Source: Escherichia coli (lineage in GTDB: Bacteria > Pseudomonadota > Gammaproteobacteria > Enterobacterales > Enterobacteriaceae). Taken from it: DNA of 64,000 bases. The position numbers were made by a program, and so were the translations under genes. The notes beneath the pieces were generated by a model, which was not told where the DNA came from, made no database searches, and saw only the letters and a list, made by a program, of their open reading frames with translations. The stretch is taken from NCBI RefSeq assembly GCF_051903065.1, contig NZ_CP178439.1; one strand, 5' to 3'. This document shows, one piece after another, positions 4,702 through 47,050 of the stretch. The number at the start of each line of letters is the position of its first letter. Position 1 is the stretch's first letter.

Positions 4702-4977
4702 GTGGCTTCTGTTTCTATCAGCTGTCCCTCCTGTTCAGCTACTGACGGGGTGGTGCGTAACGGCAAAAGCACCGCCGGACATCAGCGCTATCTCTGCTCT
4801 CACTGCCGTAAAACATGGCAACTGCAGTTCACTTACACCGCTTCTCAACCCGGTACGCACCAGAAAATCATTGATATGGCCATGAATGGCGTTGGATGCC
4901 GGGCAACCGCCCGCATTATGGGCGTTGGCCTCAACACGATTTTCCGCCATTTAAAAAACTCAGGCCGCAGTCGGTAA
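4702..4977 (+). CDS. insA: IS1 InsA
   Basis: 91-aa [43 protein letters not shown], zinc-finger InsA. Confidence 0.85.
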
Positions 4978-5399
4978 CCTCGCGCATACAGCCGGGCAGT
5001 GACGTCATCGTCTGCGCGGAAATGGACGAACAGTGGGGATACGTCGGGGCTAAATCGCGCCAGCGCTGGCTGTTTTACGCGTATGACAGGCTCCGGAAGA
5101 CGGTTGTTGCGCACGTATTCGGTGAACGCACTATGGCGACGCTGGGGCGTCTTATGAGCCTGCTGTCACCCTTTGACGTGGTGATATGGATGACGGATGG
5201 CTGGCCGCTGTATGAATCCCGCCTGAAGGGAAAGCTGCACGTAATCAGCAAGCGATATACGCAGCGAATTGAGCGGCATAACCTGAATCTGAGGCAGCAC
5301 CTGGCACGGCTGGGACGGAAGTCGCTGTCGTTCTCAAAATCGGTGGAGCTGCATGACAAAGTCATCGGGCATTATCTGAACATAAAACACTATCAATAA
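4896..5399 (+). CDS. insB: IS1 InsB reading frame (expressed as InsAB' by -1 frameshift)
   Basis: Overlapping downstream ORF inside IS1. Confidence 0.75.
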
Positions 5400-5442
5400 G
5401 TTGGAGTCATTACCGGAGAATTGTATCATTAACAGTCTAGTT

Positions 5443-6108
5443 CTAACGACTACCACTTTTAAGTATGTATTGAGCCAGTTTTATATTCAGGCACACCATA
5501 TTGCACTCTAGCTCTTTCATCATTCTTGAAGAACTCTTAATTAAGTATTCTTCAAGTGGGCCAGCATATGCCCCTGATGTCACGATCGTTAGTTGCGTAA
5601 GAGGATGAGTCAAACTCTCAATGCCCTTCAGGATGTCATTCTGGACAGCAGCAATATAAACAGGCGAAGCCGCAATCAAATATTCATCATTCGGGCTGGA
5701 CTGCATTAACTGGCTTATAGTTGCGCAACGGTTATGCTTACCTAGTGATTTTGTGATGGCTTTCCACCAGAGATCATGCCTGAATGGTACTTGATGAAAT
5801 GTCGCCTCGTAAGAGGGCACCCGATCTCGACTATTTAAAAACCCCATCCCGGCAGAGATTATCCACAACTCCAGATTTCTGGTTGAGTTTAAAATTTCCT
5901 TTGCCGTAGACCAGTGATTACCTGAATACAAGGACAATGCCGGTACCGCCTGATTACTTCTGGCGTCGTCTACAATGTTACTCCAGGCATATGCTGCGTC
6001 GTCCGGGGTTTGTTTTGGATCTATGTCCAATGTCGGCCAGACGTGGCCCTGATGATTCTTGCCCTTTGTACAGGAAGTGATTAAGTGTACTGAGCGTTCA
6101 GAGAACAT
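5443..6108 (-). CDS. Hypothetical protein (221 aa)
   Basis: Six-frame ORF in AT-rich backbone; no family recognised. Confidence 0.5.
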   Translation of the reverse strand: MFSERSVHLITSCTKGKNHQGHVWPTLDIDPKQTPDDAAYAWSNIVDDARSNQAVPALSLYSGNHWSTAKEILNSTRNLELWIISAGMGFLNSRDRVPSYEATFHQVPFRHDLWWKAITKSLGKHNRCATISQLMQSSPNDEYLIAASPVYIAAVQNDILKGIESLTHPLTQLTIVTSGAYAGPLEEYLIKSSSRMMKELECNMVCLNIKLAQYILKSGSR

Positions 6109-6165
6109 TATCTTCCTTACATACCCATAGAACAGCTTTCTAAGAACGGTGGGCTCGCCTGAAAA

Positions 6166-6546
6166 TTACAAATCAGCCCCTTTCACGGCATCATTTTGAT
6201 TCTTCGCGTCTGCCCCCAGTAAGATGACCGGTTTTCTGCATGACAGTGTTATTCCTAACAAACGCAACACAAAACCACGCCAGCCAGAGCAAATTTTTTC
6301 ATTTGCTGCGTAAAGCCTATTGTTTTCTCTTTTAAGCTTCGCCCACTCGTTACAGAGGGTAACATCATCAAGCGCTGTTATATGCTTCGCCTCACCTTCG
6401 ACGATAACGGTATGGATACCGTATGCTGTAAATCTCATACTATTTTCCAGAACCCAGTTGCGGTATTCGTCGAGTCCACCTTCGGAACCGGTAGCTCTGC
6501 GCCACATTTCAATTTGCTTGTGTGATGGGTCAAGTGTACTTGTCAT
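6166..6546 (-). CDS. Hypothetical protein (126 aa)
   Basis: ORF upstream of and co-oriented with 5443..6108; divergent from the 7189 operon. Confidence 0.5.
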   Translation of the reverse strand: MTSTLDPSHKQIEMWRRATGSEGGLDEYRNWVLENSMRFTAYGIHTVIVEGEAKHITALDDVTLCNEWAKLKRENNRLYAANEKICSGWRGFVLRLLGITLSCRKPVILLGADAKNQNDAVKGADL

Positions 6547-6814
6547 TGAAGCCTCGTCTCAGCGATAACGCTTGAAATAGCCCGCTTTGGTCATCATGAA
6601 ATTAGCCATCTGACTGGCGATTTGATTGTATCTTACTCATAGTGCCCTACCTATAGGTTAAAAAGGGGCATTTTCGCTTTATAGCGTGTTCAGCAGCATC
6701 AATCCTCCCAAGAAAGGCTGGCTTATTAAGCCGGTCCATCATTTTCTGTATATCTCTCATCAATTTTTATATCCGCCCTGGAGTGCACCGTTCAAGCACA
6801 CCGATTAGGCAGAT

Positions 6815-6875
6815 AGTCACTAGTTAACTCTTTACTAGTGACTAAATTCCATTGATATACGTGACAACGTCACGT
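6815..6875. promoter_or_regulatory. Two perfect palindromes (AGTCACTAGT-N9-ACTAGTGACT and ACGTGAC-AAC-GTCACGT) in the divergent intergenic region
   Basis: Read directly at 6815..6843 and 6859..6875; a third palindrome AGTAAAG-C-CTTTACT lies at 7084..7098. Confidence 0.35.
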
Positions 6876-7188
6876 CATGAAAGCTTATAAATGCCTATTT
6901 TTCATACAATGGGATTTAATTAGGAGTAAATCCCATAGGCTTACATAAGGATGACAATTAAAAGCGTTAAATATCAACCAGATAGAATGATTACCCCCAA
7001 TTAATGGGCTCATCACATTATTTCACTGGCTGGGGTTATTGCTGGCATATCTGAAAGTGCTAATATGTTAGTCATTAGTAATTAGTAAAGCCTTTACTAA
7101 ACGCGTTTCTACGTAAATTCTATAGGTTTTATAGTGTCCTACCTTTGCTCAAATCAAAATGTTCTGACATACCAAAATGGAGTGTAAA

Positions 7189-8007
7189 ATGACTCAAAAC
7201 CAGGGTTCTGAGCCAGTACCGGCGAGCCGGACAGGGCAGCTCATCAGCGCCCGGGATATGGCCATGCAGAAATTCGAAGAAGGGATGCGGTTAATCTCGG
7301 AAGCGTCGGAACTGTGCGGTCTCTCTCTCTTCACCAGCAGAATTATGCAGCCCAACGCATTTGGTCTTCCGTCGTCACTGGATCGCACCATCGAGGAGGG
7401 GCGTAAGGAAATTGACCGTAAAACGTGGAAAAGGCTCTTTGAAGAAACAGGTATGGACCGGTACTGGAACCATAAGCAAAAAGAAGCCTTTAACGAATCC
7501 CTTCGTACGGATCCGCCCGTCGCTTCCCTGGAGATTGTTAAGGGAACATTACAGCATGCACTGGCTAACAGACGAGACACCCTTGCAGAAGGTTTCGTTG
7601 ATGTTCTCAACAAGCTTGACCGAAGTTTCAAAAGCAATGCCAGGCAATATACAATGCCAAAAAAGCTTGTTCTTCGGGGGATTTTTCCTGGTGTGAACGT
7701 GCTGAGGTACAACGGTTTCTCGCAGGACAATCACTTTTGTTTACGCGACTTTGAGAATATTGTATGCATCTGTTCTGATACTCCAACACCTGCAACCGGC
7801 GGTGGGCTGAGTATGGTCGACAGGCTGACGGCCATGAGAAATACAGAATTCACAGGCGAGGTCAGTGATGAGAATGGCTGGCGGTGTCGCCTGTTTGAGA
7901 ATGGAAACGTTCATATTTGCATCGACAGTATCTCGCTTCTGAATGCTCTGAACGATCTTATCAGCATATATTTTGCAAACCAGCTTCCGGCCGCAGGAAA
8001 AAAATGA
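7189..8007 (+). CDS. Hypothetical protein (about 272 aa)
   Basis: ORF 7177..8007; ATG at 7189 has GGAG 6 nt upstream; stop overlaps next start (ATGA at 8004..8007). Confidence 0.55.
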   Translation: MTQNQGSEPVPASRTGQLISARDMAMQKFEEGMRLISEASELCGLSLFTSRIMQPNAFGLPSSLDRTIEEGRKEIDRKTWKRLFEETGMDRYWNHKQKEAFNESLRTDPPVASLEIVKGTLQHALANRRDTLAEGFVDVLNKLDRSFKSNARQYTMPKKLVLRGIFPGVNVLRYNGFSQDNHFCLRDFENIVCICSDTPTPATGGGLSMVDRLTAMRNTEFTGEVSDENGWRCRLFENGNVHICIDSISLLNALNDLISIYFANQLPAAGKK

Positions 8008-9209
8008 TGATTGAAAATGATAAAGAAAAAAGCCTGAACGATGCTACCCCGCCAGAGGTGCAGAATGACATCCGCAGCGAATCCACTGAAAAATCAAAGG
8101 AAATGGGTCGTTCAAGGTACTCATCTATCGCGATGATCGATTACTTCAATGCAATCGAACGTCTGTGCAAAGAGAAAGAAATTAACCCGGAAAATATCGA
8201 TCTGAGCTTCAAAGTTCACTGGCTCAGAAACGCTGTTGGCGGCTCGTTTGCAAGGTCACAGGAGATGTTCGCGGAGTACCAGAAGTATGTTAAAGAGGTT
8301 CCTGAAGAGGCCCGTTACCTGGATATACCCGATGAGGTAAAGGTTGCACTCGGCGATATTATCTCGTACATCACCTGGCACTACCGTAGAAGCTATACCG
8401 CAATACAGAATGATAGTGTTAAAAAAGCTGAAGCACGTAGCATGCAGCTGGAGGAGGAGGTAACGCAGCTGTTACAGCGGCTTGAGCAAAGCGCTACCGA
8501 TATGGATGAGCTGAAACTTGAGAATCAGGCACTACAGGGTCGATTAGAGATCCGGGACAGTACCGTCAAGGAGTTAGAAACAAGGCTGAATGTTGCCGAA
8601 GCAGAACTCGAAACCTGCCATCACCAGTTAGATAGCACACGGCATGAATTGAGCCTCGCACAGCAGTCAAATGACTCACTCTCCCAGCAACTGGCTGAAC
8701 GTAAAACAGAGATCGCTGGTCACCTTGAATATCAAAAAAAGCTGAACGAAGAGATCAACACGCAGCGTTCTGATAACGCCGGTCTTTCCAGACAATGCGA
8801 CCAGTTAAGTCAGACTGTGTCAGATACAAAGGCAGAGAGGGACAGGTTTGAACAGGAATTGATTGCTGCACAGAACCTTTGTACTGAGCTGAAAAGTGCA
8901 CTGTCCGGGAAAGAGGGTGACCTGGTGGCGGTGAATGCCGAGCTTACTGAACTCCATAAACTAAACGAGTCGCTGAGCGCCGACCTGAATAAAGTAACTT
9001 TGGTCAGCCAGGGCTATGAAGCGGAAGTGGCTGAACAAAGCAATGAACTCAAAACGCTCCAGGCCAAAGTAATGAAGCTGGAAGCTACCCTGGAGGCGGA
9101 GAAAACAATCTCAGAATCCCTAAAAGGCACCATTGATACATTAACTGGTGCAATGGCAGGGGGAGGTACTGGAAAGTCAAAACAGCCGCGTAGCAGAAAA
9201 ACATCATGA
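8004..9209 (+). CDS. Coiled-coil protein (401 aa), KfrA-like architecture
   Basis: Globular N-terminus then ~300 aa of heptad-like E/Q/L-rich sequence; translationally coupled to upstream gene. Confidence 0.55.
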   Translation: MMIENDKEKSLNDATPPEVQNDIRSESTEKSKEMGRSRYSSIAMIDYFNAIERLCKEKEINPENIDLSFKVHWLRNAVGGSFARSQEMFAEYQKYVKEVPEEARYLDIPDEVKVALGDIISYITWHYRRSYTAIQNDSVKKAEARSMQLEEEVTQLLQRLEQSATDMDELKLENQALQGRLEIRDSTVKELETRLNVAEAELETCHHQLDSTRHELSLAQQSNDSLSQQLAERKTEIAGHLEYQKKLNEEINTQRSDNAGLSRQCDQLSQTVSDTKAERDRFEQELIAAQNLCTELKSALSGKEGDLVAVNAELTELHKLNESLSADLNKVTLVSQGYEAEVAEQSNELKTLQAKVMKLEATLEAEKTISESLKGTIDTLTGAMAGGGTGKSKQPRSRKTS

Positions 9210-9272
9210 TAAATGAAGCCAGGTTGATACACTTCTCTGCATCCCCTGGCACATAAGAACTTCTGCGGACAT

Positions 9273-9476
9273 TCAGCCCGTCCGCAGGAGTTTTCGTCCT
9301 TCAGTCAACAAATGCACTACCTTTTTTGAGTCTCCACTTTCCAGAGCAGAAAACACGTTACCGATTCTACCAACAGCTTGTATCTGAGTGATAACCCCAG
9401 TCTTGTAATCATCTAGGATCCCTGACAGGAAAGCGTTCAGTTTTGTCTGTTCGCTTAGCGAAAGCATGTAGGACAT
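9273..9476 (-). CDS. Small hypothetical protein (67 aa)
   Basis: ORF immediately downstream of 9489..10808 on the same strand. Confidence 0.3.
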   Translation of the reverse strand: MSYMLSLSEQTKLNAFLSGILDDYKTGVITQIQAVGRIGNVFSALESGDSKKVVHLLTEGRKLLRTG

Positions 9477-9488
9477 TTTTTCTCCATT

Positions 9489-10808
9489 TTAAGCAGGTGT
9501 GTCAGTTGAAAGAGGTTTGCGTGATTCTGGAAAATGAGGCAGCACCATAGTTTCAGATGCTGTGGTCGCATCCCAGTGCCACCATCCATAAGGCCCATAT
9601 TCACGGTTGTAATAATCTTTTTTGAGTTGCTTTCGGGCCAGATAAGCAGGAGTGGCCATACCAAATACTTCCATCGGGAACGGCTTATCGCTTTTTGTGT
9701 CGAGCAGGTAGAAGTCAGGGAACACCTCACTAATACTCGCATCATAACGCATGGGCTTAACGTACTGCCGGTGCTCTGCATCCAGCTTTTCTGCAACAAC
9801 CGCCTCATAGGAGGAGTCCAGAGGTATCCAGTTCTCGCTAACGTGCATCAGCACAATTTGATGAGCTCTTACAGAAGGGCCTCTGCCGGTTACCGCAGCT
9901 GGTGACGTCAACGCAAAGACAACTATTTTCGCCCCGGATTTCCATGCTGCGTACTCCGATGAAAATCGTTTCTTTACGCTATCCCAATGGACTTCTGAAT
10001 TGAAAAAAATCAGCGGTAGCCCCCCAAAATTCCGCAGGGGTAAAAATTTAAGTGGCTTCTCATGCTTTTCAGCATCGTAGCGAGGTAAAACTGACAGGAG
10101 CATGAGACGTTTATCACTCATCGCCTGTGATGAAAGACGCTGAATTTGCGACTGAGCGACAGGTTGTTTCGGGTCAGGTACACCAATGAATAAATGGTCA
10201 CCTATGCAGGCTCTGCCGGTACGAATTTGTTTAGCGGTTTCAAGCAGACGATACCGTACCAGTGAATCGTTACGTTTCCCTGCCATTTTCGGGTACCAGA
10301 CATTCAGACCAGACTCTGTCCACAAAAGACTAAGCAAGCCCAGGAGGGTCATTGAGGCCTGACCTCCTTCTGGTCGCTGAACATGGGGCAGGGGAGGCAC
10401 TTCTGATTTTTCAGGAGGATCTTTCTCTGTCATACCGATACCGAGCCTTACAGCCATATCACCTTCGGTTGTAATCCGGACCACACCACTCGCATATCCT
10501 TTCAGGCCGGTATGCCGGGCATCAAGGGAGAAGAATACACAGGAAGGATCATGCTCAATGCCCGTGTTAGCGGCTTTGACGAGAATAAAGGCATCACCGT
10601 TCGGTAAAGCACGAACATAAAGTCGCTTTTCTCCTTTTCCACGACATCCGCAGGTGATGACTGATTTTTGACCTGAGGTGTGGTGTGCCTTTTTAAGAGC
10701 CGACTGCCACCCTTTAGCAAACTCATCCTGCGTTTGAAAGTCAGGTGAATACCTTTTGACGTTTGGATCGTCGTCGTAAGCAATCATCACTGCGAATTTT
10801 TGGCTCAT
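9489..10808 (-). CDS. Hypothetical protein (439 aa), conserved-plasmid-protein appearance
   Basis: Long ORF with AGGAGA RBS 6 nt upstream; co-oriented downstream of the Dcm-like gene. Confidence 0.6.
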   Translation of the reverse strand: MSQKFAVMIAYDDDPNVKRYSPDFQTQDEFAKGWQSALKKAHHTSGQKSVITCGCRGKGEKRLYVRALPNGDAFILVKAANTGIEHDPSCVFFSLDARHTGLKGYASGVVRITTEGDMAVRLGIGMTEKDPPEKSEVPPLPHVQRPEGGQASMTLLGLLSLLWTESGLNVWYPKMAGKRNDSLVRYRLLETAKQIRTGRACIGDHLFIGVPDPKQPVAQSQIQRLSSQAMSDKRLMLLSVLPRYDAEKHEKPLKFLPLRNFGGLPLIFFNSEVHWDSVKKRFSSEYAAWKSGAKIVVFALTSPAAVTGRGPSVRAHQIVLMHVSENWIPLDSSYEAVVAEKLDAEHRQYVKPMRYDASISEVFPDFYLLDTKSDKPFPMEVFGMATPAYLARKQLKKDYYNREYGPYGWWHWDATTASETMVLPHFPESRKPLSTDTPA

Positions 10809-17828: not shown

Positions 17829-17878
17829 GGGTAAACCAGAGGACGCTACTGCTTGCCAAAATCTTAAAGGGGAGCCCG

Positions 17879-18779
17879 CAGAATTCGGAAAAAATCGTAC
17901 GCTAAGGTTTTCCGGGCATCCGTAAGGGCCGAAACTTCCCGTCTTCCAGTCTGCGGCTCTGCCGCCAGACGTAATCGCCGGTTAGGTTGATGTGCTCCCA
18001 GCCCAGCGGCGACAGGAATTGCAGCAGCTCGCCGTCCACCGGCTTGCCGGCCTCGACCAACCCCTGGGTGGCGCGTTCCAGGTACACCGTGTTCCACAGC
18101 ACGATAGCCGCCGTCACCAGGTTGAGGCCGCTGGCCCGGTAGCGCTGCTGCTCGAAGCTCCGATCCCTGATTTCCCCAAGGCGGTTGAAGAACACCGCCC
18201 TGGCCAGCGAGTTGCGCGCCTCACCTTTGTTCAGGCCGGCATGCACGCGGCGGCGCAGTTCAACACTTTGCAGCCAGTCCAGGATGAACAGCGTGCGCTC
18301 GATCCGGCCCAGCTCGCGCAGGGCCACGGCCAGTCCGTTCTGGCGCGGGTAGCTGCCGAGCTTGCGCAGCATCAGCGAGGCGGTGACGGTGCCCTGCTTG
18401 ATCGAGCTGGCCAGGCGCAGGATGTCGTCCCAGTGGGCACGCACGTGCTTGATGTTCAGGGTGCCGCCGATCAGCGGGCGCAACGTCGGGTAGGCTTGCA
18501 CGCCCTGCGGCACGTACAGCTTGGTTTCGCCGAGGTCGCGGATGCGCGGCGCGAAGCGGAAGCCTAGCAGGTGCATCAGGGCAAAGACGTGATCGGTGAA
18601 GCCGGCCGTGTCGGTGTAGTGCTCCTCGATCCGCAGGTCGGACTCGTGGTACAGCAGGCCGTCGAGCACATAGGTGGAATCGCGGACGCCGACATTCACC
18701 ACGCGGGTGCTGAACGGCGCGTACTGGTCGGAGATATGGGTATAGAACAGCCGTCCCGGCTCGCTACCGTACTTCGGGT
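17879..18779 (-). mobile_element. tnpA: Tn1721/Tn501-type transposon end: 38-bp IR (17879..17916) plus 3' part of tnpA (pseudogene), truncated by IS26
   Basis: IR GGGGAGCCCGCAGAATTCGGAAAAAATCGTACGCTAAG; Tn3-family TnpA C-terminus ([12 protein letters not shown]...[32 protein letters not shown]) ends at the IS26 junction. Confidence 0.85.
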
Positions 18780-19599
18780 GGCACTGTTGCAAATAGTCGG
18801 TGGTGATAAACTTATCATCCCCTTTTGCTGATGGAGCTGCACATGAACCCATTCAAAGGCCGGCATTTTCAGCGTGACATCATTCTGTGGGCCGTACGCT
18901 GGTACTGCAAATACGGCATCAGTTACCGTGAGCTGCAGGAGATGCTGGCTGAACGCGGAGTGAATGTCGATCACTCCACGATTTACCGCTGGGTTCAGCG
19001 TTATGCGCCTGAAATGGAAAAACGGCTGCGCTGGTACTGGCGTAACCCTTCCGATCTTTGCCCGTGGCACATGGATGAAACCTACGTGAAGGTCAATGGC
19101 CGCTGGGCGTATCTGTACCGGGCCGTCGACAGCCGGGGCCGCACTGTCGATTTTTATCTCTCCTCCCGTCGTAACAGCAAAGCTGCATACCGGTTTCTGG
19201 GTAAAATCCTCAACAACGTGAAGAAGTGGCAGATCCCGCGATTCATCAACACGGATAAAGCGCCCGCCTATGGTCGCGCGCTTGCTCTGCTCAAACGCGA
19301 AGGCCGGTGCCCGTCTGACGTTGAACACCGACAGATTAAGTACCGGAACAACGTGATTGAATGCGATCATGGCAAACTGAAACGGATAATCAACGCCACG
19401 CTGGGATTTAAATCCATGAAGACGGCTTACGCCACCATCAAAGGTATTGAGGTGATGCGTGCACTACGCAAAGGCCAGGCCTCAGCATTTTATTATGGTG
19501 ATCCCCTGGGCGAAATGCGCCTGGTAAGCAGAGTTTTTGAAATGTAAGGCCTTTGAATAAGACAAAAGGCTGCCTCATCGCTAACTTTGCAACAGTGCC
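18780..19599 (+). mobile_element. tnpA: IS26 copy 2, transposase CDS 18843..19547, Asn at residue 184 (KRIINATLG)
   Basis: Both 14-bp IRs present; GGC to AAC codon change relative to copy 1; flanks do not match. Confidence 0.95.
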
Positions 19600-19953
19600 G
19601 ACAAGAGTACGCCGCAGCTCGATCTTTTGGCTCGTGTCGAACGAGAGCTACCGGTGCGGCTCGACCAAGAGCGCACCGATATGGTTGTTTGCCATGGTGA
19701 TCCCTGCATGCCGAACTTCATGGTGGACCCTAAAACTCTTCAATGCACGGGTCTGATCGACCTTGGGCGGCTCGGAACAGCAGATCGCTATGCCGATTTG
19801 GCACTCATGATTGCTAACGCCGAAGAGAACTGGGCAGCGCCAGATGAAGCAGAGCGCGCCTTCGCTGTCCTATTCAATGTATTGGGGATCGAAGCCCCCG
19901 ACCGCGAACGCCTTGCCTTCTATCTGCGATTGGACCCTCTGACTTGGGGTTGA
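19600..19953 (+). pseudogene. strA: aph(3'')-Ib (strA) 3' fragment, 5'-truncated by IS26
   Basis: C-terminal 117 codons of StrA in frame from the IS26 boundary. Confidence 0.85.
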
Positions 19954-41810: not shown

Positions 41811-41906
41811 ATGATTAACCTGTTAATCATCGTTCTCAGGGCTGTGGTCGCCGTTGCAAACGCGCTGATTGCAGTTCTGGAACTGATCCGTCAGTTCATC
41901 GACTGA
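41811..41906 (+). CDS. Candidate type I toxin, DinQ/TisB-like 31-aa hydrophobic peptide (MINLLIIVLRAVVAVANALIAVLELIRQFID)
   Basis: Hand-translated ORF; LELIR motif shared with DinQ as recalled; SD within a CTCCAG-N7-CTGGAG hairpin; terminator-like hairpin at 41928..41954. Confidence 0.45.
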   Translation: MINLLIIVLRAVVAVANALIAVLELIRQFID

Positions 41907-41972
41907 TGACTGCGGAAACGTAACTAAGGGCAGGAAGTGCACCGCTTCCTGCCCTTTAACAAAGGAGGATTT

Positions 41973-42152
41973 ATGGATTTTATGAGCATTTTGGGGCGCT
42001 GTTTACTTCTTCCTTTCCCTGTTGCGATGTTTGTCGGTTGCCTGTTTCCAGGCATTGATGATCGTTTTACTGGAATGTTCATGAGTTTTATTGTCGGTTG
42101 TCTATCGTGGTATATCACCAAGCCAAAACCGCAAAAGGCTGAGGTCGCGTAA
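41973..42152 (+). CDS. Small membrane protein (59 aa)
   Basis: Strong RBS AAGGAGG 6 nt upstream of ATG; two hydrophobic helices. Confidence 0.4.
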   Translation: MDFMSILGRCLLLPFPVAMFVGCLFPGIDDRFTGMFMSFIVGCLSWYITKPKPQKAEVA

Positions 42153-42538
42153 GCGGCCTTTTTTACGTCTCTCGTTTAATTCCTCGCCATTCTGTCCAGA
42201 AATAGTATTGCGGCTAATCAAGCCAATTCCTACGTCTTTTCGCTGTTGCACGATCTAAAAGAAAATATGGGAAAATTTCATGAAAGTATGGTACTAAAGG
42301 GTCTTTAATTCCTTTATCTTGTTCCTTCAACTGCACAGTATCTCGTAAAAACCAACAAGCCGGTTGTTTAAAAAACGCTCTTAGCGTAGGATGTTTTCCA
42401 TTTTCCAAGTGGAACCCAAGTACGATGCCCGCGAAAAAGACAGCCCTCTTATGAAGAGGGCTGTTATCTGATATAGGCTTGTTATGGTCTCACTCTTGAT
42501 TAATCAGGTGTATGTGCAACCTTGGTGCACACAATCGA

Positions 42539-44440
42539 TTATGCAGCTTGATGATCTGAAGTGTTACCGGAAGTATCTTCGGTTCGTTTTTTGTTTGTGA
42601 TGGATTCACTTTTATCTCGCAAGGCTGAGTCTATGACGTTAAACACCTTTTCCCACCGAGAAATCCAACCGCATATAGGTTGAACACGACATTTTTCCAG
42701 GAAGAAATTTAATAAGTTAGTTTTTTTATTATCTTGCACTTTGAATGGTTCAATTACATCATCGGCATCAACAGATTTTCCTCCGATAAACCACGACGGA
42801 TGGGTTTCCATTGCGTCAGAAATGAAATCGTCAGGGAAGAGGCCTTCAATAGCAAAACCACTTCTTACAGAAATATAGTCTTTATTTGACTCAAATCTAA
42901 TTTGTTTTTTACCAAAGTAGCTTTGTAATCTGGTTCTTTCTTTGACCCCAGCTTCATCACCGTCAAAAACAGATATTACGGGGACATCTTTAGAAATAAA
43001 CTCGTAGCACCCTTTCAAGAATCCCCCAAGTTGACTGACTCCACCAAACTCATCAACTTTAGCACTCCTCAGAAAAGGCCATCTGTTCTTAAACTCATCA
43101 TCTTCAGATGTCAATTTCAATATTGATTCTATATATTGTTTGTCGGTGATACCTTCAACGAAAACTGCACTACTTGATATGTTAAAGAAATCAGAAAATC
43201 TGACCCCAAGATTTTCTCTTATGCTTGCAACTGCATTAAATCTTTTTTCATGCTTTTTATCTTTTGTAACACCGGCGTCATCTTTATATAACTCAATGAT
43301 CTTACTTGGCTCATCACTGACAAATGATAAGGAATGAGTTGTAATAAGAACATAAGCAACATCCATCAGTGATTTGAAAATGTGATTACATGACCGGCCT
43401 AATGAGGGATGCAAGAAAGACTCAGGCTCCTCAACCATCCAAATCGTTTTCTTACCTAGAGTAAGTTTTCTCTCTGAAATAGATTTAAATGAAGAAAATA
43501 AAGATAAGCATTGTAGCCCCATACCTTTACTCGATATCACATTCTCAATAGTATCTTTTATTGAAACCTCAAAGCGACCAAATAACTCATCAAGAGATGG
43601 CGGAGCTTTAATAATAAAGCTACAGTCATCTATACCGCTTAGAATCATTTCATTTGTTATCTTTTCAGATACTTCCAACAGTTTATCATGAATCACTTGA
43701 ACCGATGTTTTCATGGCTGAAGCTACTTCACTCCTAACATATGGAACTAATAGATTATGATATATATCATCAATACTTTTTGACGATGGTATATACACAC
43801 ACTCAAAACTAGAAAGTATTTTTTCTATGAACCTTCTTTCAACAGATGTATACATGGAGGAAGTTACTTCAGGTTTCCTCTTGTAACCTTTAAAGACAGT
43901 GTAAAAGTAATTGTTTTTATTAGATATTGTCAGATGTACGGTCACTTCGTTTTGAGGTGACTTTAACCTGGAGTCATCAATCATGTTAAACAGCTGCAAA
44001 TATCTATCTCTCAAACTTAGCTTTCTGCCTCTTGATTGAGTTGGTTTTGATTCTTGTTGTTTAGAGCTGCCATCATCAAATGAAATAGAATTACTAGGCT
44101 CTTCTTGCTCCCCTAAAACACCAAGTTCAATAATCGAGTCATCATCGTCATCATCATCGTCTTGGCTCAAATCCTCAGAGACATCATCTAGCTCACTTTC
44201 AGAAAAAGTAAATCTTACAGCAAAACTAGTTTGTCCTTGCTTAACACCATGTGGCTTATCTTTTTCATAGTCATATAAGTCAGGATTAAATTTTCCTTCA
44301 AAAAAAACCCTCATAGCTTTTAATAGGTTTGTTTTACCACTGTTGTTTTGCCCAACAATGGTTAATCCATTAAAGTTATCAGAGGATATCTCCCCTGAAA
44401 TAGACCTATACTGAGAAACTTTAAATGATACTATTTCCAT
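42539..44440 (-). CDS. OLD-family ABC-type ATPase fused to a TOPRIM nuclease domain (633 aa)
   Basis: Walker A GQNNSGKT, Walker B IWMVEEPESFLHP, H-loop ITTHS, then TOPRIM-like VFVEGITDKQ and FDGDEAG; eight-Asp run; AT-rich. Confidence 0.7.
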   Translation of the reverse strand: MEIVSFKVSQYRSISGEISSDNFNGLTIVGQNNSGKTNLLKAMRVFFEGKFNPDLYDYEKDKPHGVKQGQTSFAVRFTFSESELDDVSEDLSQDDDDDDDDSIIELGVLGEQEEPSNSISFDDGSSKQQESKPTQSRGRKLSLRDRYLQLFNMIDDSRLKSPQNEVTVHLTISNKNNYFYTVFKGYKRKPEVTSSMYTSVERRFIEKILSSFECVYIPSSKSIDDIYHNLLVPYVRSEVASAMKTSVQVIHDKLLEVSEKITNEMILSGIDDCSFIIKAPPSLDELFGRFEVSIKDTIENVISSKGMGLQCLSLFSSFKSISERKLTLGKKTIWMVEEPESFLHPSLGRSCNHIFKSLMDVAYVLITTHSLSFVSDEPSKIIELYKDDAGVTKDKKHEKRFNAVASIRENLGVRFSDFFNISSSAVFVEGITDKQYIESILKLTSEDDEFKNRWPFLRSAKVDEFGGVSQLGGFLKGCYEFISKDVPVISVFDGDEAGVKERTRLQSYFGKKQIRFESNKDYISVRSGFAIEGLFPDDFISDAMETHPSWFIGGKSVDADDVIEPFKVQDNKKTNLLNFFLEKCRVQPICGWISRWEKVFNVIDSALRDKSESITNKKRTEDTSGNTSDHQAA

Positions 44441-44545
44441 TTTTCTTCCTACGATAGAATATTGCTCGGATTATCGACATTTTTTCCCAAGGCTTTAACT
44501 GTCTTTCGCTACTTGGATAAATGGCTCTTCCTCCACTGTTCTGCT

Positions 44546-45055
44546 TTATTTTCGCCAGAAAGCCCACCATGCATGTTGTTTGTCCTGAAGTGCTGCTTTA
44601 TCCTGAAGCAATTCAGCACTCACTGCCCCCTGAAGCACAGAAACGGCGTTTCTCGCGGCATTGCGACAGGAATCAATAACCTCTGGTTCGTTGGGCTTTC
44701 TGAGCAGGATAAATTGCGATACTTTGGACTGAGTATCAAAAGCATAGATTCGCAATTCAGGGGAGGATGTCAGGCTTACAATATTATGCAACCGCATATA
44801 ATTGGTGTAGTCCTTGCTACTTGGATCACATGATTCATAAAGATATTTCTGCATTAGCGTTTGCGATGAAGAAAGAAAATCTATATAGCGGTCAGTTTTT
44901 TTATCTATATCCCGCAGTCGCTGAGCTATTGCATCTTTTCTTATTTCGTGGCAGTGTGTTAATTTCAGTGTAATCCAGCCACCAACAATGGTGATTAATG
45001 CACCCAGCCCAATTTTAACGGCATTATCAGCCACATCTACCCACTCAGTTGCCAT
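44546..45055 (-). CDS. Hypothetical protein with N-terminal TM helix (169 aa)
   Basis: ORF 105 bp upstream of and co-oriented with the OLD-like gene. Confidence 0.45.
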   Translation of the reverse strand: MATEWVDVADNAVKIGLGALITIVGGWITLKLTHCHEIRKDAIAQRLRDIDKKTDRYIDFLSSSQTLMQKYLYESCDPSSKDYTNYMRLHNIVSLTSSPELRIYAFDTQSKVSQFILLRKPNEPEVIDSCRNAARNAVSVLQGAVSAELLQDKAALQDKQHAWWAFWRK

Positions 45056-45182
45056 CTGTTACGTGTTCTTCCTGTGATGATCATGGTCGCTAGTATAATT
45101 CTCCGGCTGACTGGACATACAGCATTTTCTGTCCAAGATTAATAACCTCGAACTGCAACACAATGCCGCAGATGATGCAAAG

Positions 45183-46031
45183 GGGGAGCCCGCAGAATTC
45201 GGAAAAAATCGTACGCTAAGGTTTTCCGGGCATCCGTAAGGGCCGAAACTTCCCGTCTTCCAGTCTGCGGCTCTGCCGCCAGACGTAATCGCCGGTTAGG
45301 TTGATGTGCTCCCAGCCCAGCGGCGACAGGAATTGCAGCAGCTCGCCGTCCACCGGCTTGCCGGCCTCGACCAACCCCTGGGTGGCGCGTTCCAGGTACA
45401 CCGTGTTCCACAGCACGATAGCCGCCGTCACCAGGTTGAGGCCGCTGGCCCGGTAGCGCTGCTGCTCGAAGCTCCGATCCCTGATTTCCCCAAGGCGGTT
45501 GAAGAACACCGCCCTGGCCAGCGAGTTGCGCGCCTCACCTTTGTTCAGGCCGGCATGCACGCGGCGGCGCAGTTCAACACTTTGCAGCCAGTCCAGGATG
45601 AACAGCGTGCGCTCGATCCGGCCCAGCTCGCGCAGGGCCACGGCCAGTCCGTTCTGGCGCGGGTAGCTGCCGAGCTTGCGCAGCATCAGCGAGGCGGTGA
45701 CGGTGCCCTGCTTGATCGAGCTGGCCAGGCGCAGGATGTCGTCCCAGTGGGCACGCACGTGCTTGATGTTCAGGGTGCCGCCGATCAGCGGGCGCAACGT
45801 CGGGTAGGCTTGCACGCCCTGCGGCACGTACAGCTTGGTTTCGCCGAGGTCGCGGATGCGCGGCGCGAAGCGGAAGCCTAGCAGGTGCATCAGGGCAAAG
45901 ACGTGATCGGTGAAGCCGGCCGTGTCGGTGTAGTGCTCCTCGATCCGCAGGTCGGACTCGTGGTACAGCAGGCCGTCGAGCACATAGGTGGAATCGCGGA
46001 CGCCGACATTCACCACGCGGGTGCTGAACGG
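45183..46031 (-). mobile_element. tnpA: Second Tn1721-type transposon end: 38-bp IR (45183..45220) plus tnpA 3' fragment, truncated by IS26 52 bp further 3' in tnpA than the copy at 17879..18779
   Basis: Identical IR and TnpA C-terminus; retained tnpA is 52 bp shorter than in the first copy. Confidence 0.85.
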
Positions 46032-46851
46032 GGCACTGTTGCAAATAGTCGGTGGTGATAAACTTATCATCCCCTTTTGCTGATGGAGCTGCACATGAAC
46101 CCATTCAAAGGCCGGCATTTTCAGCGTGACATCATTCTGTGGGCCGTACGCTGGTACTGCAAATACGGCATCAGTTACCGTGAGCTGCAGGAGATGCTGG
46201 CTGAACGCGGAGTGAATGTCGATCACTCCACGATTTACCGCTGGGTTCAGCGTTATGCGCCTGAAATGGAAAAACGGCTGCGCTGGTACTGGCGTAACCC
46301 TTCCGATCTTTGCCCGTGGCACATGGATGAAACCTACGTGAAGGTCAATGGCCGCTGGGCGTATCTGTACCGGGCCGTCGACAGCCGGGGCCGCACTGTC
46401 GATTTTTATCTCTCCTCCCGTCGTAACAGCAAAGCTGCATACCGGTTTCTGGGTAAAATCCTCAACAACGTGAAGAAGTGGCAGATCCCGCGATTCATCA
46501 ACACGGATAAAGCGCCCGCCTATGGTCGCGCGCTTGCTCTGCTCAAACGCGAAGGCCGGTGCCCGTCTGACGTTGAACACCGACAGATTAAGTACCGGAA
46601 CAACGTGATTGAATGCGATCATGGCAAACTGAAACGGATAATCGGCGCCACGCTGGGATTTAAATCCATGAAGACGGCTTACGCCACCATCAAAGGTATT
46701 GAGGTGATGCGTGCACTACGCAAAGGCCAGGCCTCAGCATTTTATTATGGTGATCCCCTGGGCGAAATGCGCCTGGTAAGCAGAGTTTTTGAAATGTAAG
46801 GCCTTTGAATAAGACAAAAGGCTGCCTCATCGCTAACTTTGCAACAGTGCC
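46032..46851 (+). mobile_element. tnpA: IS26 copy 8, transposase CDS 46095..46799, Gly at residue 184
   Basis: Both IRs present; flanks do not match. Confidence 0.95.
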
Positions 46852-47050
46852 GCGCGACGAGCAGCAGCACCAGGAGCAGAAGCACGTCGAGAAAAAGCAA
46901 CAGCAGATCGAGCAGCGCCCACGGCGGGCCGCTCGCATCGGATAAGTCGAAAAATCCGGCTAAAGTGGCCGAGCTGCACATCAGGCCGCGCGGTTTTCCT
47001 CCCTGATCGCCGGCGCGGTTTCTTCCTCCCTGAACCGCATGCAGACTTGC

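Follow-up and report, generated by a model that had tools for sequence, protein, structure and literature searches.

Within the window analysed here, a 64,000-nt stretch of Escherichia coli DNA (contig NZ_CP178439.1), two open reading frames lie 105 bp apart on the minus strand. The first (42539..44440) encodes a 633-aa protein predicted to be a class 1 OLD-family ATPase-TOPRIM nuclease and is referred to below as OLD; the second, upstream of it (44546..45055), encodes a 169-aa protein predicted to be anchored in the membrane at its N-terminus. Recomputation reproduced the coordinates, shared orientation and spacing given in an earlier sequence-only reading of this DNA, and every motif quoted there from the 633-aa protein was found at its expected place. 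The setting is AT-rich, as had been described, with a GC content of 0.35–0.40 over 42–45 kb that is lower than on both flanks (0.43–0.52 at 39–42 kb and 0.54–0.67 at 45–50 kb). The placement of the locus between a type I toxin-like locus and a transposon end also held. On one side are dqlB (41811-41906, plus strand), a DinQ-like type I toxin gene for a 31-aa hydrophobic peptide, and the AgrB antisense RNA (41399-41486; Rfam, 68.8 bits); on the other is a 38-bp terminal inverted repeat (45183-45220), beyond which lie a truncated transposase gene and then IS26. A 3.9-kb segment (41301..45183) that includes the AgrB RNA, dqlB, a 59-aa ORF, OLD and the 169-aa gene shares 99.3% identity with IncX1 plasmids; the transposon end interrupts it at 45183.

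A terminator-like hairpin, with an 11-bp stem followed by a T-run, lies 75 bp past the OLD stop codon (42440..42464, minus strand). This is just within the boundary of the DNA shared with a 5.8-kb Klebsiella plasmid (42434-44536), which carries a 94% identical OLD copy and has in common with the window the ORF, 96 bp upstream and 105 bp downstream, terminator included. The 96-bp upstream region (44441..44536, minus strand), kept at ~91.5% identity in the Klebsiella plasmid, would supply OLD with its own promoter and ribosome-binding site; we infer the promoter activity, because a promoter scan of the 105-bp gap between the 169-aa gene and OLD reached nothing above threshold. A weak promoter candidate (TTAAAG-17-GATAAT) can be seen by eye in the same gap, and no weight is placed on it. 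Since a scan of the gap showed no terminator-like site between the 169-aa gene and OLD, the two genes may form an operon in the 3.9-kb segment.

Relationship between the 169-aa gene and OLD

The 169-aa protein had been read as a small membrane partner of the nuclease, which would make the locus a two-gene system with the membrane protein as sensor, anchor or regulator of OLD. The co-orientation of the genes, their close spacing and the lack of a terminator-like site between them are consistent with such an arrangement, as is the fact that the pair stays together on IncX1 and IncHI2 plasmids. However, all paired copies fall within one segment of about 98–100% identity (98.0–99.3% to three IncX1 plasmids and 100% to other IncHI2 plasmids), so that the linkage reflects common descent and not selection. 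OLD copies at 94%, 72%, 62% and 43% identity, and every distant homologue sampled, were without the 169-aa gene. The 169-aa family, for its part, was present on 633 plasmid records versus about 180 for OLD, with about 460 of them bearing diverged copies without OLD. Settings of the 169-aa gene without OLD include IncFII plasmids, where the gene sits alone beside IncFII repA, Klebsiella plasmids and P2-like prophages. The claim of a partner was therefore abandoned: a two-gene system is quite improbable, and the 169-aa gene is independent mobile-element cargo, not a conserved partner. Lying upstream of OLD in this segment, it may be co-transcribed but would not be needed.

The 169-aa protein has a single N-terminal hydrophobic segment (about aa 12–31) and belongs to a family confined to Enterobacterales. 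Searches against Pfam, NCBIfam, PADLOC and PHROGs gave no match, and a profile search with the family returned no informative distant relative. The database label 'peptidase M14' was rejected as lacking support. Exposing this gene as unrelated cargo keeps a false two-gene system out of defence catalogues.

Domain structure of the 633-aa protein

In the ATPase half, the Walker A motif or P-loop GQNNSGKT (aa 30–37; 44330..44353, minus strand) aligns with the P-loops of Ts OLD, a class 1 enzyme from Thermus scotoductus, and of GajA from Gabija; its lysine, K36, is invariant (42/42 aligned homologues). The Walker B and D-loop segment, IWMVEEPESFLHP (aa 333–345; 43406..43444, minus strand), contains the invariant residues E337, E338 and H344. 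Here Glu replaces Asp and is followed seven residues on by His, aligning with E276/H283 of Ts OLD and D299/H306 of P2 Old. The H-loop ITTHS (aa 366–370; 43331..43345, minus strand) contains the invariant H369, equivalent to H310 of Ts OLD and H332 of P2 Old. The acidic pair of Walker B and the two histidines are the motif variants that mark the OLD family. At only 30–73% identity, none of the 42 aligned homologues departs from the residues of Walker A, Walker B, the H-loop and TOPRIM, and these motifs are therefore not chance matches.

Several comparisons agree with the earlier assignment of the protein as a predicted OLD-family ATPase-TOPRIM nuclease. It matched Pfam AAA_15 (E 5.3e-18) and, with partial coverage only, the PADLOC Old model (E 6.7e-19). 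When a profile of the family was compared with PDB, the best solved-structure match was Ts OLD (6p74, E 8.7e-18), then GajA (3e-13), then the heads of Rad50 and SMC proteins; the family profile was required, as a single-sequence search against PDB gave nothing useful. Alignment to P2 Old with hhalign had a probability of 98.6%, and the best Foldseek matches of the predicted structure were GajA, retron Eco8 OLD and Ts OLD. In the predicted model, long helices at aa 194–267 would lie between the ATPase strands, where Ts OLD has its dimerisation domain.

A predicted C-terminal OLD-type TOPRIM nuclease domain spans aa about 422–633 (42542..43177, minus strand). Its catalytic candidates, all encoded on the minus strand, are E429/G430/D433 (43142-43156) in the motif VFVEGITDKQ (aa 426–435), D493/D495 (42956-42964) in the motif FDGDEAG (aa 492–498), E532 (42845-42847) and K573 (42722-42724). 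E429, D433, D493/D495 and E532 are invariant in the family, and K573 is kept in 41/42. Among the putative metal A ligands (E429, D493 and D495), E429 falls on the VEG motif in the alignments to Ts OLD, GajA and P2 Old, and the DxD pair on the DGDEAG of YbjD; the putative metal B ligands are D433, at Glu+4, and E532. The third metal-B ligand is Ser or Thr in Ts OLD, Bp OLD and retron Eco2; its position, residue 530, holds Ala in the 633-aa protein and Ala, Pro or Ser in the family at large. K573 is placed by the model in the first C-terminal helix; the catalytic basic residue is Lys in Bp OLD, P2 Old and Eco2, and Arg in Ts OLD. As judged by alignment, the conserved residues correspond to the catalytic sets described for Ts OLD, Bp OLD, P2 Old and Eco2, and on the same grounds the two-metal acidic site of the domain would be complete.

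Divergence of the TOPRIM domain is strong enough to keep searches by sequence alone below threshold. Pfam TOPRIM models gave only sub-threshold matches, whether the full protein or its C-terminal domain was searched (OLD-like_TOPRIM, E 0.28; Toprim_2; Toprim). The best match of a C-terminal profile among PDB sequences was a small TOPRIM protein (E 0.41), and Foldseek with the C-terminal domain alone was weak (E 2.8e-3). The best matches of this domain are OLD-type TOPRIM domains, in keeping with the C-terminal TOPRIM fold of the OLD family. The 633-aa protein has C-terminal helices (aa 570–626) and aligns with the C-terminal region of the class 2 Bp OLD over more residues than with Ts OLD; the compact TOPRIM of Ts OLD, which lacks the helical additions of class 2, is a trait of its structure that stands outside the context-based definition of class 1. 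Standard domain models do not label the subfamily as a nuclease, and its database name is "AAA family ATPase".

The protein also contains a disordered acidic insert (aa 80–141; 44018..44203, minus strand) with a net charge of −16 and a pLDDT below 50 at aa 102–134. The eight-Asp run that had earlier been singled out is real (aa 94–101; 44138-44161; codons GAC GAT GAT GAT GAC GAT GAT GAC) but is no isolated oddity, as it belongs to this clade-specific insert, which measures 60–69 aa with a net charge of −12 to −19 in nine Enterobacterales-clade homologues, versus a 4–10-aa loop in the 33 others. The poly-Asp tract is slippage-prone and length-polymorphic (D8 versus D10 alleles), and the insert terminates in a short basic patch. 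It is the one feature of the 633-aa protein still without explanation. A speculative and rather doubtful idea is that it acts as a built-in nucleic-acid mimic, either auto-inhibiting the ATPase-TOPRIM or baiting a phage DNA-binding or anti-defence protein. If true, this would put trigger sensing inside a single-gene OLD system, a principle undescribed for any OLD class.

Distribution and proposed function

The OLD gene was found in 89 of 5,426 complete E. coli genomes, and 99 of its 106 places were plasmid-borne; one copy had been inactivated by IS1. The gene is carried by conjugative resistance plasmids of clinical importance (IncHI2 and IncX1) and, in the reference strain E. coli ATCC 25922, by the plasmid pATCC25922_3. 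On IncX1 plasmids the gene occupies a maintenance/accessory region with resolvase, partition and type I toxin-antitoxin genes nearby. Solitary homologues were present between the N and cI genes of a lambdoid prophage in Edwardsiella and in chromosomal islets of Serratia and Prodigiosinella, while the Vibrio member, P0057, is a single-gene superintegron cassette seen at three array positions. Homologues in Pseudomonas, Raineyella and Hymenobacter have unrelated neighbours, and across ten homologue contexts no neighbour recurred; homologues occupy prophage accessory slots and adjoin toxin-antitoxin loci. At the sequence level the 633-aa gene defines a small, diverged and uncharacterised OLD subfamily, of which 1.84 billion proteins yielded about 45 full-length representatives.

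A phage genome collection contained no full-length match to either protein (two weak partial Vibrio phage matches for OLD, none for the 169-aa protein). Literature searches found no prior report for the protein accessions, nor for IncHI2 or IncX1 combined with OLD; the accessions were absent from those supplementary files of the Cran1 paper that were available, and a preprint on defence in mobile integrons does not mention OLD.

This sporadic, mobile-element-borne distribution is a defence-like ecology. The literature consulted shows anti-phage activity for just three class 1 proteins, P2 Old, Vc OLD (from Vibrio cholerae) and YbjD, the phenotypes of the last being independent of its TOPRIM domain. 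We consider a standalone class 1 OLD enzyme with anti-phage function a fairly likely identity for the 633-aa protein, its gene being a self-contained unit with its own 96-bp upstream region and terminator. The sequence-only proposal of a defence candidate appears reasonable in our assessment, the protein fitting class 1 OLD, and the gene, which is intact, probably serves anti-phage defence.

By analogy with P2 Old, Vc OLD, Ts OLD and GajA, the 633-aa protein would form a dimer or larger oligomer and keep its TOPRIM nuclease under the control of ATP binding and hydrolysis. On a signal of phage infection the nuclease would be freed to cut nucleic acid, halting phage replication or killing the infected cell before progeny are released (abortive infection), and so protecting the plasmid-bearing population. 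The substrate could be DNA, nicked or degraded as by Vc OLD, Ts OLD and GajA; alternatively, the enzyme could cleave structured RNA or tRNA in the manner of P2 Old, AriB and retron Eco2.

The near-complete restriction of E. coli copies to plasmids, together with the maintenance-type neighbours on IncX1, might instead point to a plasmid-centred role, with the nuclease acting against competing plasmids or incoming DNA, or keeping its plasmid stable by being toxic when the plasmid is lost; plasmid DNA is the stated target of TOPRIM nucleases such as Wadjet JetD. Against this, homologues both close and distant occur in prophages, in an integron array and in chromosomal islets, settings in which selection by competition between plasmids is not obvious, and the phenotypes of characterised class 1 OLD proteins have so far all been anti-phage. 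We regard such a role as unlikely. Not all OLD proteins serve defence, as Cran1, an OLD-family protein, acts in the archaeal cell cycle, and a comparable housekeeping role in DNA or chromatin metabolism could be linked to the subfamily's weak affinity to Pfam DUF2813 (YbjD-type). The sporadic distribution tied to mobile elements, the lack of a conserved neighbourhood, the tiny size of the subfamily and the copy knocked out by IS1 all argue against it, making this role very improbable.

Should the favoured anti-phage enzyme in fact restrict phages or DNA entering the cell, it would give Enterobacteriaceae a trait, carried on plasmids, that could influence both phage therapy and competition between plasmids. 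In that case it would also be an easily tested model, its natural host strain being widely available. Among the branches of this major defence family, the class 1 OLD nucleases have been explored least.

Comparison with characterised OLD systems

By published definition, class 1 OLD genes are standalone, lie in variable neighbourhoods and encode ATPase and TOPRIM in one polypeptide, with no helicase, reverse transcriptase or ncRNA. The 633-aa gene was assigned to class 1 on the basis of its solitary homologues and of a neighbourhood free of helicase, reverse transcriptase and split TOPRIM genes. As the sequence-only reading had noted, neither a UvrD-like helicase gene nor a separate AriB gene is adjacent, and none is present in the window or in the plasmid annotation. 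That reading had left the choice between a class 1 OLD and a fused PARIS-like variant, and the genomic context fits the former. A fusion of the class 4 AriA ATPase with the AriB TOPRIM nuclease might be suggested by the PADLOC AriA model, which matches aa 1–374 (E 6e-18); however, the C-terminal domain matches neither an AriB/DUF4435 model nor such a structure, its best match being an OLD-type TOPRIM, and there is no separate TOPRIM gene. We hold a fused PARIS to be extremely improbable.

The class 3 systems retron Eco2 RT-Toprim and retron Eco8 OLD differ in context, as the locus has neither a reverse transcriptase gene nor a retron ncRNA. No retron RNA was matched in an Rfam search, and the NCBIfam retron Eco8 effector model scored 29 bits against a cutoff of 250. 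Where Eco2 has a reverse transcriptase, the 633-aa protein has a fused ATPase. A retron identity was accordingly rejected, neither reverse transcriptase nor ncRNA being present.

GajA of the class 2 system Gabija shares the two-domain architecture and gave a strong full-length Foldseek match (E 6.7e-16), but GajA profiles score below the Old profile, and no GajB (UvrD-like) gene stands beside the 633-aa gene or any sampled homologue. With no helicase gene adjacent, a Gabija identity was also rejected. On one IncX1 plasmid a DEAD/DEAH helicase gene lies 1.3 kb off, past dqlB; it is missing from the other IncX1 copies and from the window.

Among class 1 proteins, Vc OLD is likewise a bacterial enzyme encoded by a standalone gene, in its case on a mobile defence element. 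This DNA nickase blocks phages alone, requires its Walker A, Walker B and TOPRIM DxD motifs for doing so, and is countered by Oad1 of phage ICP1. Compared by published motifs only (K48, D313 and D468/D470), it appears to be another clade, because the motif numbering differs and its Walker B residue is Asp. The subfamily's own Vibrio member, P0057, is an integron cassette outside the DarTG element.

P2 Old, known for RecBCD dependence and cleavage of tRNA-Thr, is also a single polypeptide with an ABC ATPase and TOPRIM, encoded by a standalone gene on a mobile element, and PADLOC Old is the best-scoring named profile for the 633-aa protein. The hhalign alignment spans the signature motif, Walker B, D-loop His and H-loop His up to the TOPRIM glutamate, and the candidate for the catalytic basic residue is a lysine in the 633-aa protein (K573) and in P2 Old (K550) alike. 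By contrast, the alignment ends after the first TOPRIM motif, the remaining C-terminal sequence not being recognisably similar; P2 Old has Asp at the Walker B residue where the 633-aa protein has Glu, and it is without the 62-aa acidic insert. With Ts OLD, its best solved-structure match by sequence, the 633-aa protein has in common Glu instead of Asp in Walker B, histidines in the D-loop (at +7) and the H-loop, and the sequential order of its putative metal A and metal B residues.

The locus and the catalytic halves of the protein

The OLD-family gene (42539..44440, minus strand; 633 aa) and the co-oriented 169-aa ORF (44546..45055, minus strand), separated by 105 bp, were both recovered as ORFs. 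All of the motifs quoted in the sequence-only reading were verified in the larger protein, namely Walker A GQNNSGKT (aa 30-37), the Walker B/D-loop stretch IWMVEEPESFLHP (aa 333-345), the H-loop ITTHS (aa 366-370), the TOPRIM motifs VFVEGITDKQ (aa 426-435) and FDGDEAG (aa 492-498), and a run of eight Asp residues (aa 94-101; 44138-44161, minus strand). The locus is AT-rich and lies between a toxin locus and a transposon end, as had been described, with a GC content of 0.35-0.40; the flank at higher coordinates has 0.54-0.67 and the one at lower coordinates 0.43-0.52.

For the ATPase half, Pfam returned AAA_15 only (5.3e-18), and PADLOC gave partial matches with Old best (6.7e-19), followed by AriA and GajA. 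A search of 5.8 billion proteins identified full-length homologues of ~555-600 aa in Proteobacteria, Bacteroidota, Actinomycetota and other groups, and some sources label these OLD-family or ATP-dependent nucleases. Across a family alignment of 42 sequences (30-73% identity to the query), K36, E337/E338, H344 and H369 were invariant. The same unusual set, a Glu at the Walker B position, a D-loop His at +7 and the H-loop His, belongs to the published motifs of Thermus scotoductus (Ts) OLD and P2 Old. Searched against solved structures, the family profile matched Ts OLD (6p74; 8.7e-18) and GajA (3e-13), and hhalign aligned it with P2 Old at 98.6% probability from the signature motif through the TOPRIM glutamate.

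The TOPRIM domain was the weak point of the OLD assignment, since no sequence model passed threshold there, either in Pfam or when the C-terminal profile was compared with PDB sequences. Comparison at the level of predicted structure, a check proposed with the original reading, resolves the assignment. The full-length AlphaFold model (mean pLDDT 84.1) best matched GajA, retron Eco8 OLD and Ts OLD in Foldseek (E 1e-14 to 1e-16), while the TOPRIM domain alone ranked Bp OLD first, weakly (E 2.8e-3). In the model and alignment the invariant residues lie where a TOPRIM domain should have them: E429-G430 follows strand 1 with D433 four residues further, D493-x-D495 follows strand 3 with E532 later, and K573, kept in 41 of the 42 sequences, sits in the first C-terminal helix. 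By alignment, these residues appear to correspond to the metal A (E429, D493, D495), metal B (D433, E532) and basic-residue (K573) sets published for Ts OLD, Bp OLD, P2 Old and Eco2. The sole departure is the Ser/Thr metal-B ligand position, which is Ala here and A, P or S across the family. Taken together, the profile and Foldseek matches uphold placement in the OLD family.

The Asp run falls within a 62-aa insert (aa 80-141) that is disordered in the model (pLDDT <50 at aa 102-134). The insert measures 60-69 aa in nine homologues of the Enterobacterales clade (identity as low as 43%), where it carries a net charge of -12 to -19 and closes with a short basic patch; the 33 other homologues have a 4-10-aa loop in its place. 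Because the sequence of the insert drifts as its acidity stays, selection on composition is suggested. Among otherwise near-identical plasmids the tract varies from 8 to 10 residues (8 in the window and two IncX1 plasmids; 10 in an E. coli IncX1/X3 plasmid and a 5.8-kb Klebsiella plasmid), and this variation in a GAC/GAT tract is consistent with in-frame repeat slippage.

Class assignment and the neighbouring 169-aa gene

By published definition, OLD classes are distinguished by gene context. The window contains no UvrD-like helicase, reverse transcriptase, retron RNA or separate TOPRIM gene, in agreement with the earlier view that neither a helicase nor an AriB gene is adjacent, and no neighbour gene recurs in ten homologue contexts. 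The closest homologue, from Edwardsiella piscicida (4784-6709 of its locus; 72% identity), is solitary in the interval between the N antiterminator and cI repressor genes of a lambdoid prophage, a slot filled by rexAB in phage lambda. Serratia and Prodigiosinella copies form solitary chromosomal islets, one of them adjoining hicAB. In Vibrio the gene forms a superintegron cassette of its own between ~123-bp repeats (~5965-7817 of locus L025) and occupies three array positions in three genomes, and in Pseudomonas, Raineyella and Hymenobacter unrelated genes lie beside it. Given the lack of helicase, reverse transcriptase, retron RNA and split TOPRIM gene, together with solitary homologues that share no neighbour, the protein is class 1, one of the two options that had been raised. 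The other, a fused PARIS-like variant, was rejected: the AriA match spans the same stretch as generic AAA_15, and the C-terminal domain gives no AriB or DUF4435 signal.

The 169-aa protein, which had been read as a small membrane partner, has a single N-terminal hydrophobic segment and no match in Pfam, NCBIfam, PADLOC or PHROGs. On IncHI2 plasmids it is annotated "peptidase M14", a label left unsupported by the lack of any domain match, and the OLD gene "AAA family ATPase". The family was found in Enterobacterales only. Plasmid records with the 169-aa family number 633, versus 199 with the OLD gene (182 of them at >=90% identity), and therefore ~460 plasmids hold a diverged 169-aa homologue without OLD. 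Members of the family stand alone near IncFII repA, with a ParE-like gene; in the vicinity of Abi_2 and FRG genes on Klebsiella plasmids; and, in P2-like Serratia prophages, beside hicAB at the site that tin/old holds in P2, with the portal gene on one side and gpA on the other. Conversely, the 5.8-kb Klebsiella plasmid carries a 94%-identical OLD without the 169-aa gene. It shares with the window only 42434-44536, that is, the ORF with 96 bp upstream and 105 bp downstream, the latter including a strong terminator-like hairpin (42464-42440).

All pairs of the two genes lie within one 3.9-kb segment (41301-45183), 98.0-99.3% identical to IncX1 plasmids that include pATCC25922_3 of E. coli ATCC 25922 and S. 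Heidelberg pCFSAN002069_02. The pairing thus goes back to the shared ancestry of a single DNA segment rather than to a conserved system, and the partnership falls away. Co-transcription within this segment is possible, as no terminator separates the two genes in the window. The 169-aa family is an orphan family whose members turn up repeatedly as lone genes at accessory sites of mobile elements (loci L009-L019), and it may in its own right be a single-gene exclusion or defence factor that has gone unrecognised.

Flanking elements and plasmid carriage

The OLD gene adjoins a DinQ-like type I toxin-antitoxin locus with all its parts: AgrB antisense RNA (41399-41486, minus strand; Rfam 68.8 bits), dqlB (41811-41906, plus strand; 31-aa DqlB toxin) and a hydrophobic ORF of 59 aa (41973-42152, plus strand), after which comes a terminator-like hairpin. 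On the other side, a 38-bp transposon terminal inverted repeat (45183-45220), presumably of Tn1721 type, leads into a truncated transposase gene and then IS26. This junction is present in two direct copies of 99.8% identity (17866-19600 and 45179-46852), each consisting of the 38-bp repeat, ~850 bp of truncated transposase gene and IS26. The copies enclose ~27 kb of resistance region and both adjoin AT-rich, backbone-like DNA; direct repeats of this kind could give rise to deletions or amplifications. The 64 kb carries at least eight scattered IS26 transposase ORFs (240 aa, TTG start) as well as IS4321, ISVsa3, floR and a ramA-family regulator, as is typical of mosaic resistance regions built by IS26.

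Many IncHI2 multidrug-resistance plasmids of 230-315 kb, from E. coli, Salmonella and Enterobacter, match the 3.5 kb surrounding the locus at 100% identity. Among 5,426 complete E. coli genomes, 89 carry the OLD gene, and 99 of its 106 places are plasmid-borne. One E. coli copy, on a plasmid of IncHI2 size, is split by IS1A (NZ_JBXSFF010000002.1, 131770-134448), a natural knockout that can be compared with intact siblings. A literature search returned no paper naming the accessions or connecting IncX1/IncHI2 plasmids to OLD nucleases. In pCFSAN002069_02 (8174-10705 of locus L020), an 843-aa DEAD/DEAH helicase gene lies ~1.3 kb from OLD, past dqlB; it was not found in the window or the other IncX1 copies examined, which have HEPN-domain genes or a GNAT/methyltransferase cluster in its place.

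A diverged subfamily and its characterised relatives

An exhaustive search of 1.84 billion representative proteins gave only ~45 end-to-end profile matches at E <1e-100. OLD-like proteins of ~560 aa formed a second tier, matching the first 450 profile positions only. Among nine proteins scanned from both tiers, this one included, P2-type Old was the best PADLOC model in six, AriA was slightly ahead in two and the two were level in one; the Old model was covered only to about position 450 of 578. Automated defence finders would probably miss this gene.

The ATPase-TOPRIM architecture, itself not surprising, is thus found with intact catalytic sets in an autonomous gene, and the gene represents a class 1 OLD subfamily that is diverged and carried by mobile elements. 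Its standing as a defence candidate is retained. Class 1 OLDs have received little study, and the present example occurs in a standard reference strain as well as on plasmids of clinical relevance. By analogy with characterised relatives, infection would trigger ATP-gated, two-metal cleavage of nucleic acid, and the outcome would be a block to phage replication or abortive infection. The target is DNA for Vc OLD, Ts OLD, GajA and Eco8, whereas it is tRNA or RNA for P2 Old, AriB and Eco2. P2 Old is the closest relative in sequence, Eco2 and Bp OLD are the closest in structure, and as to the likely substrate the two comparisons point in different directions.
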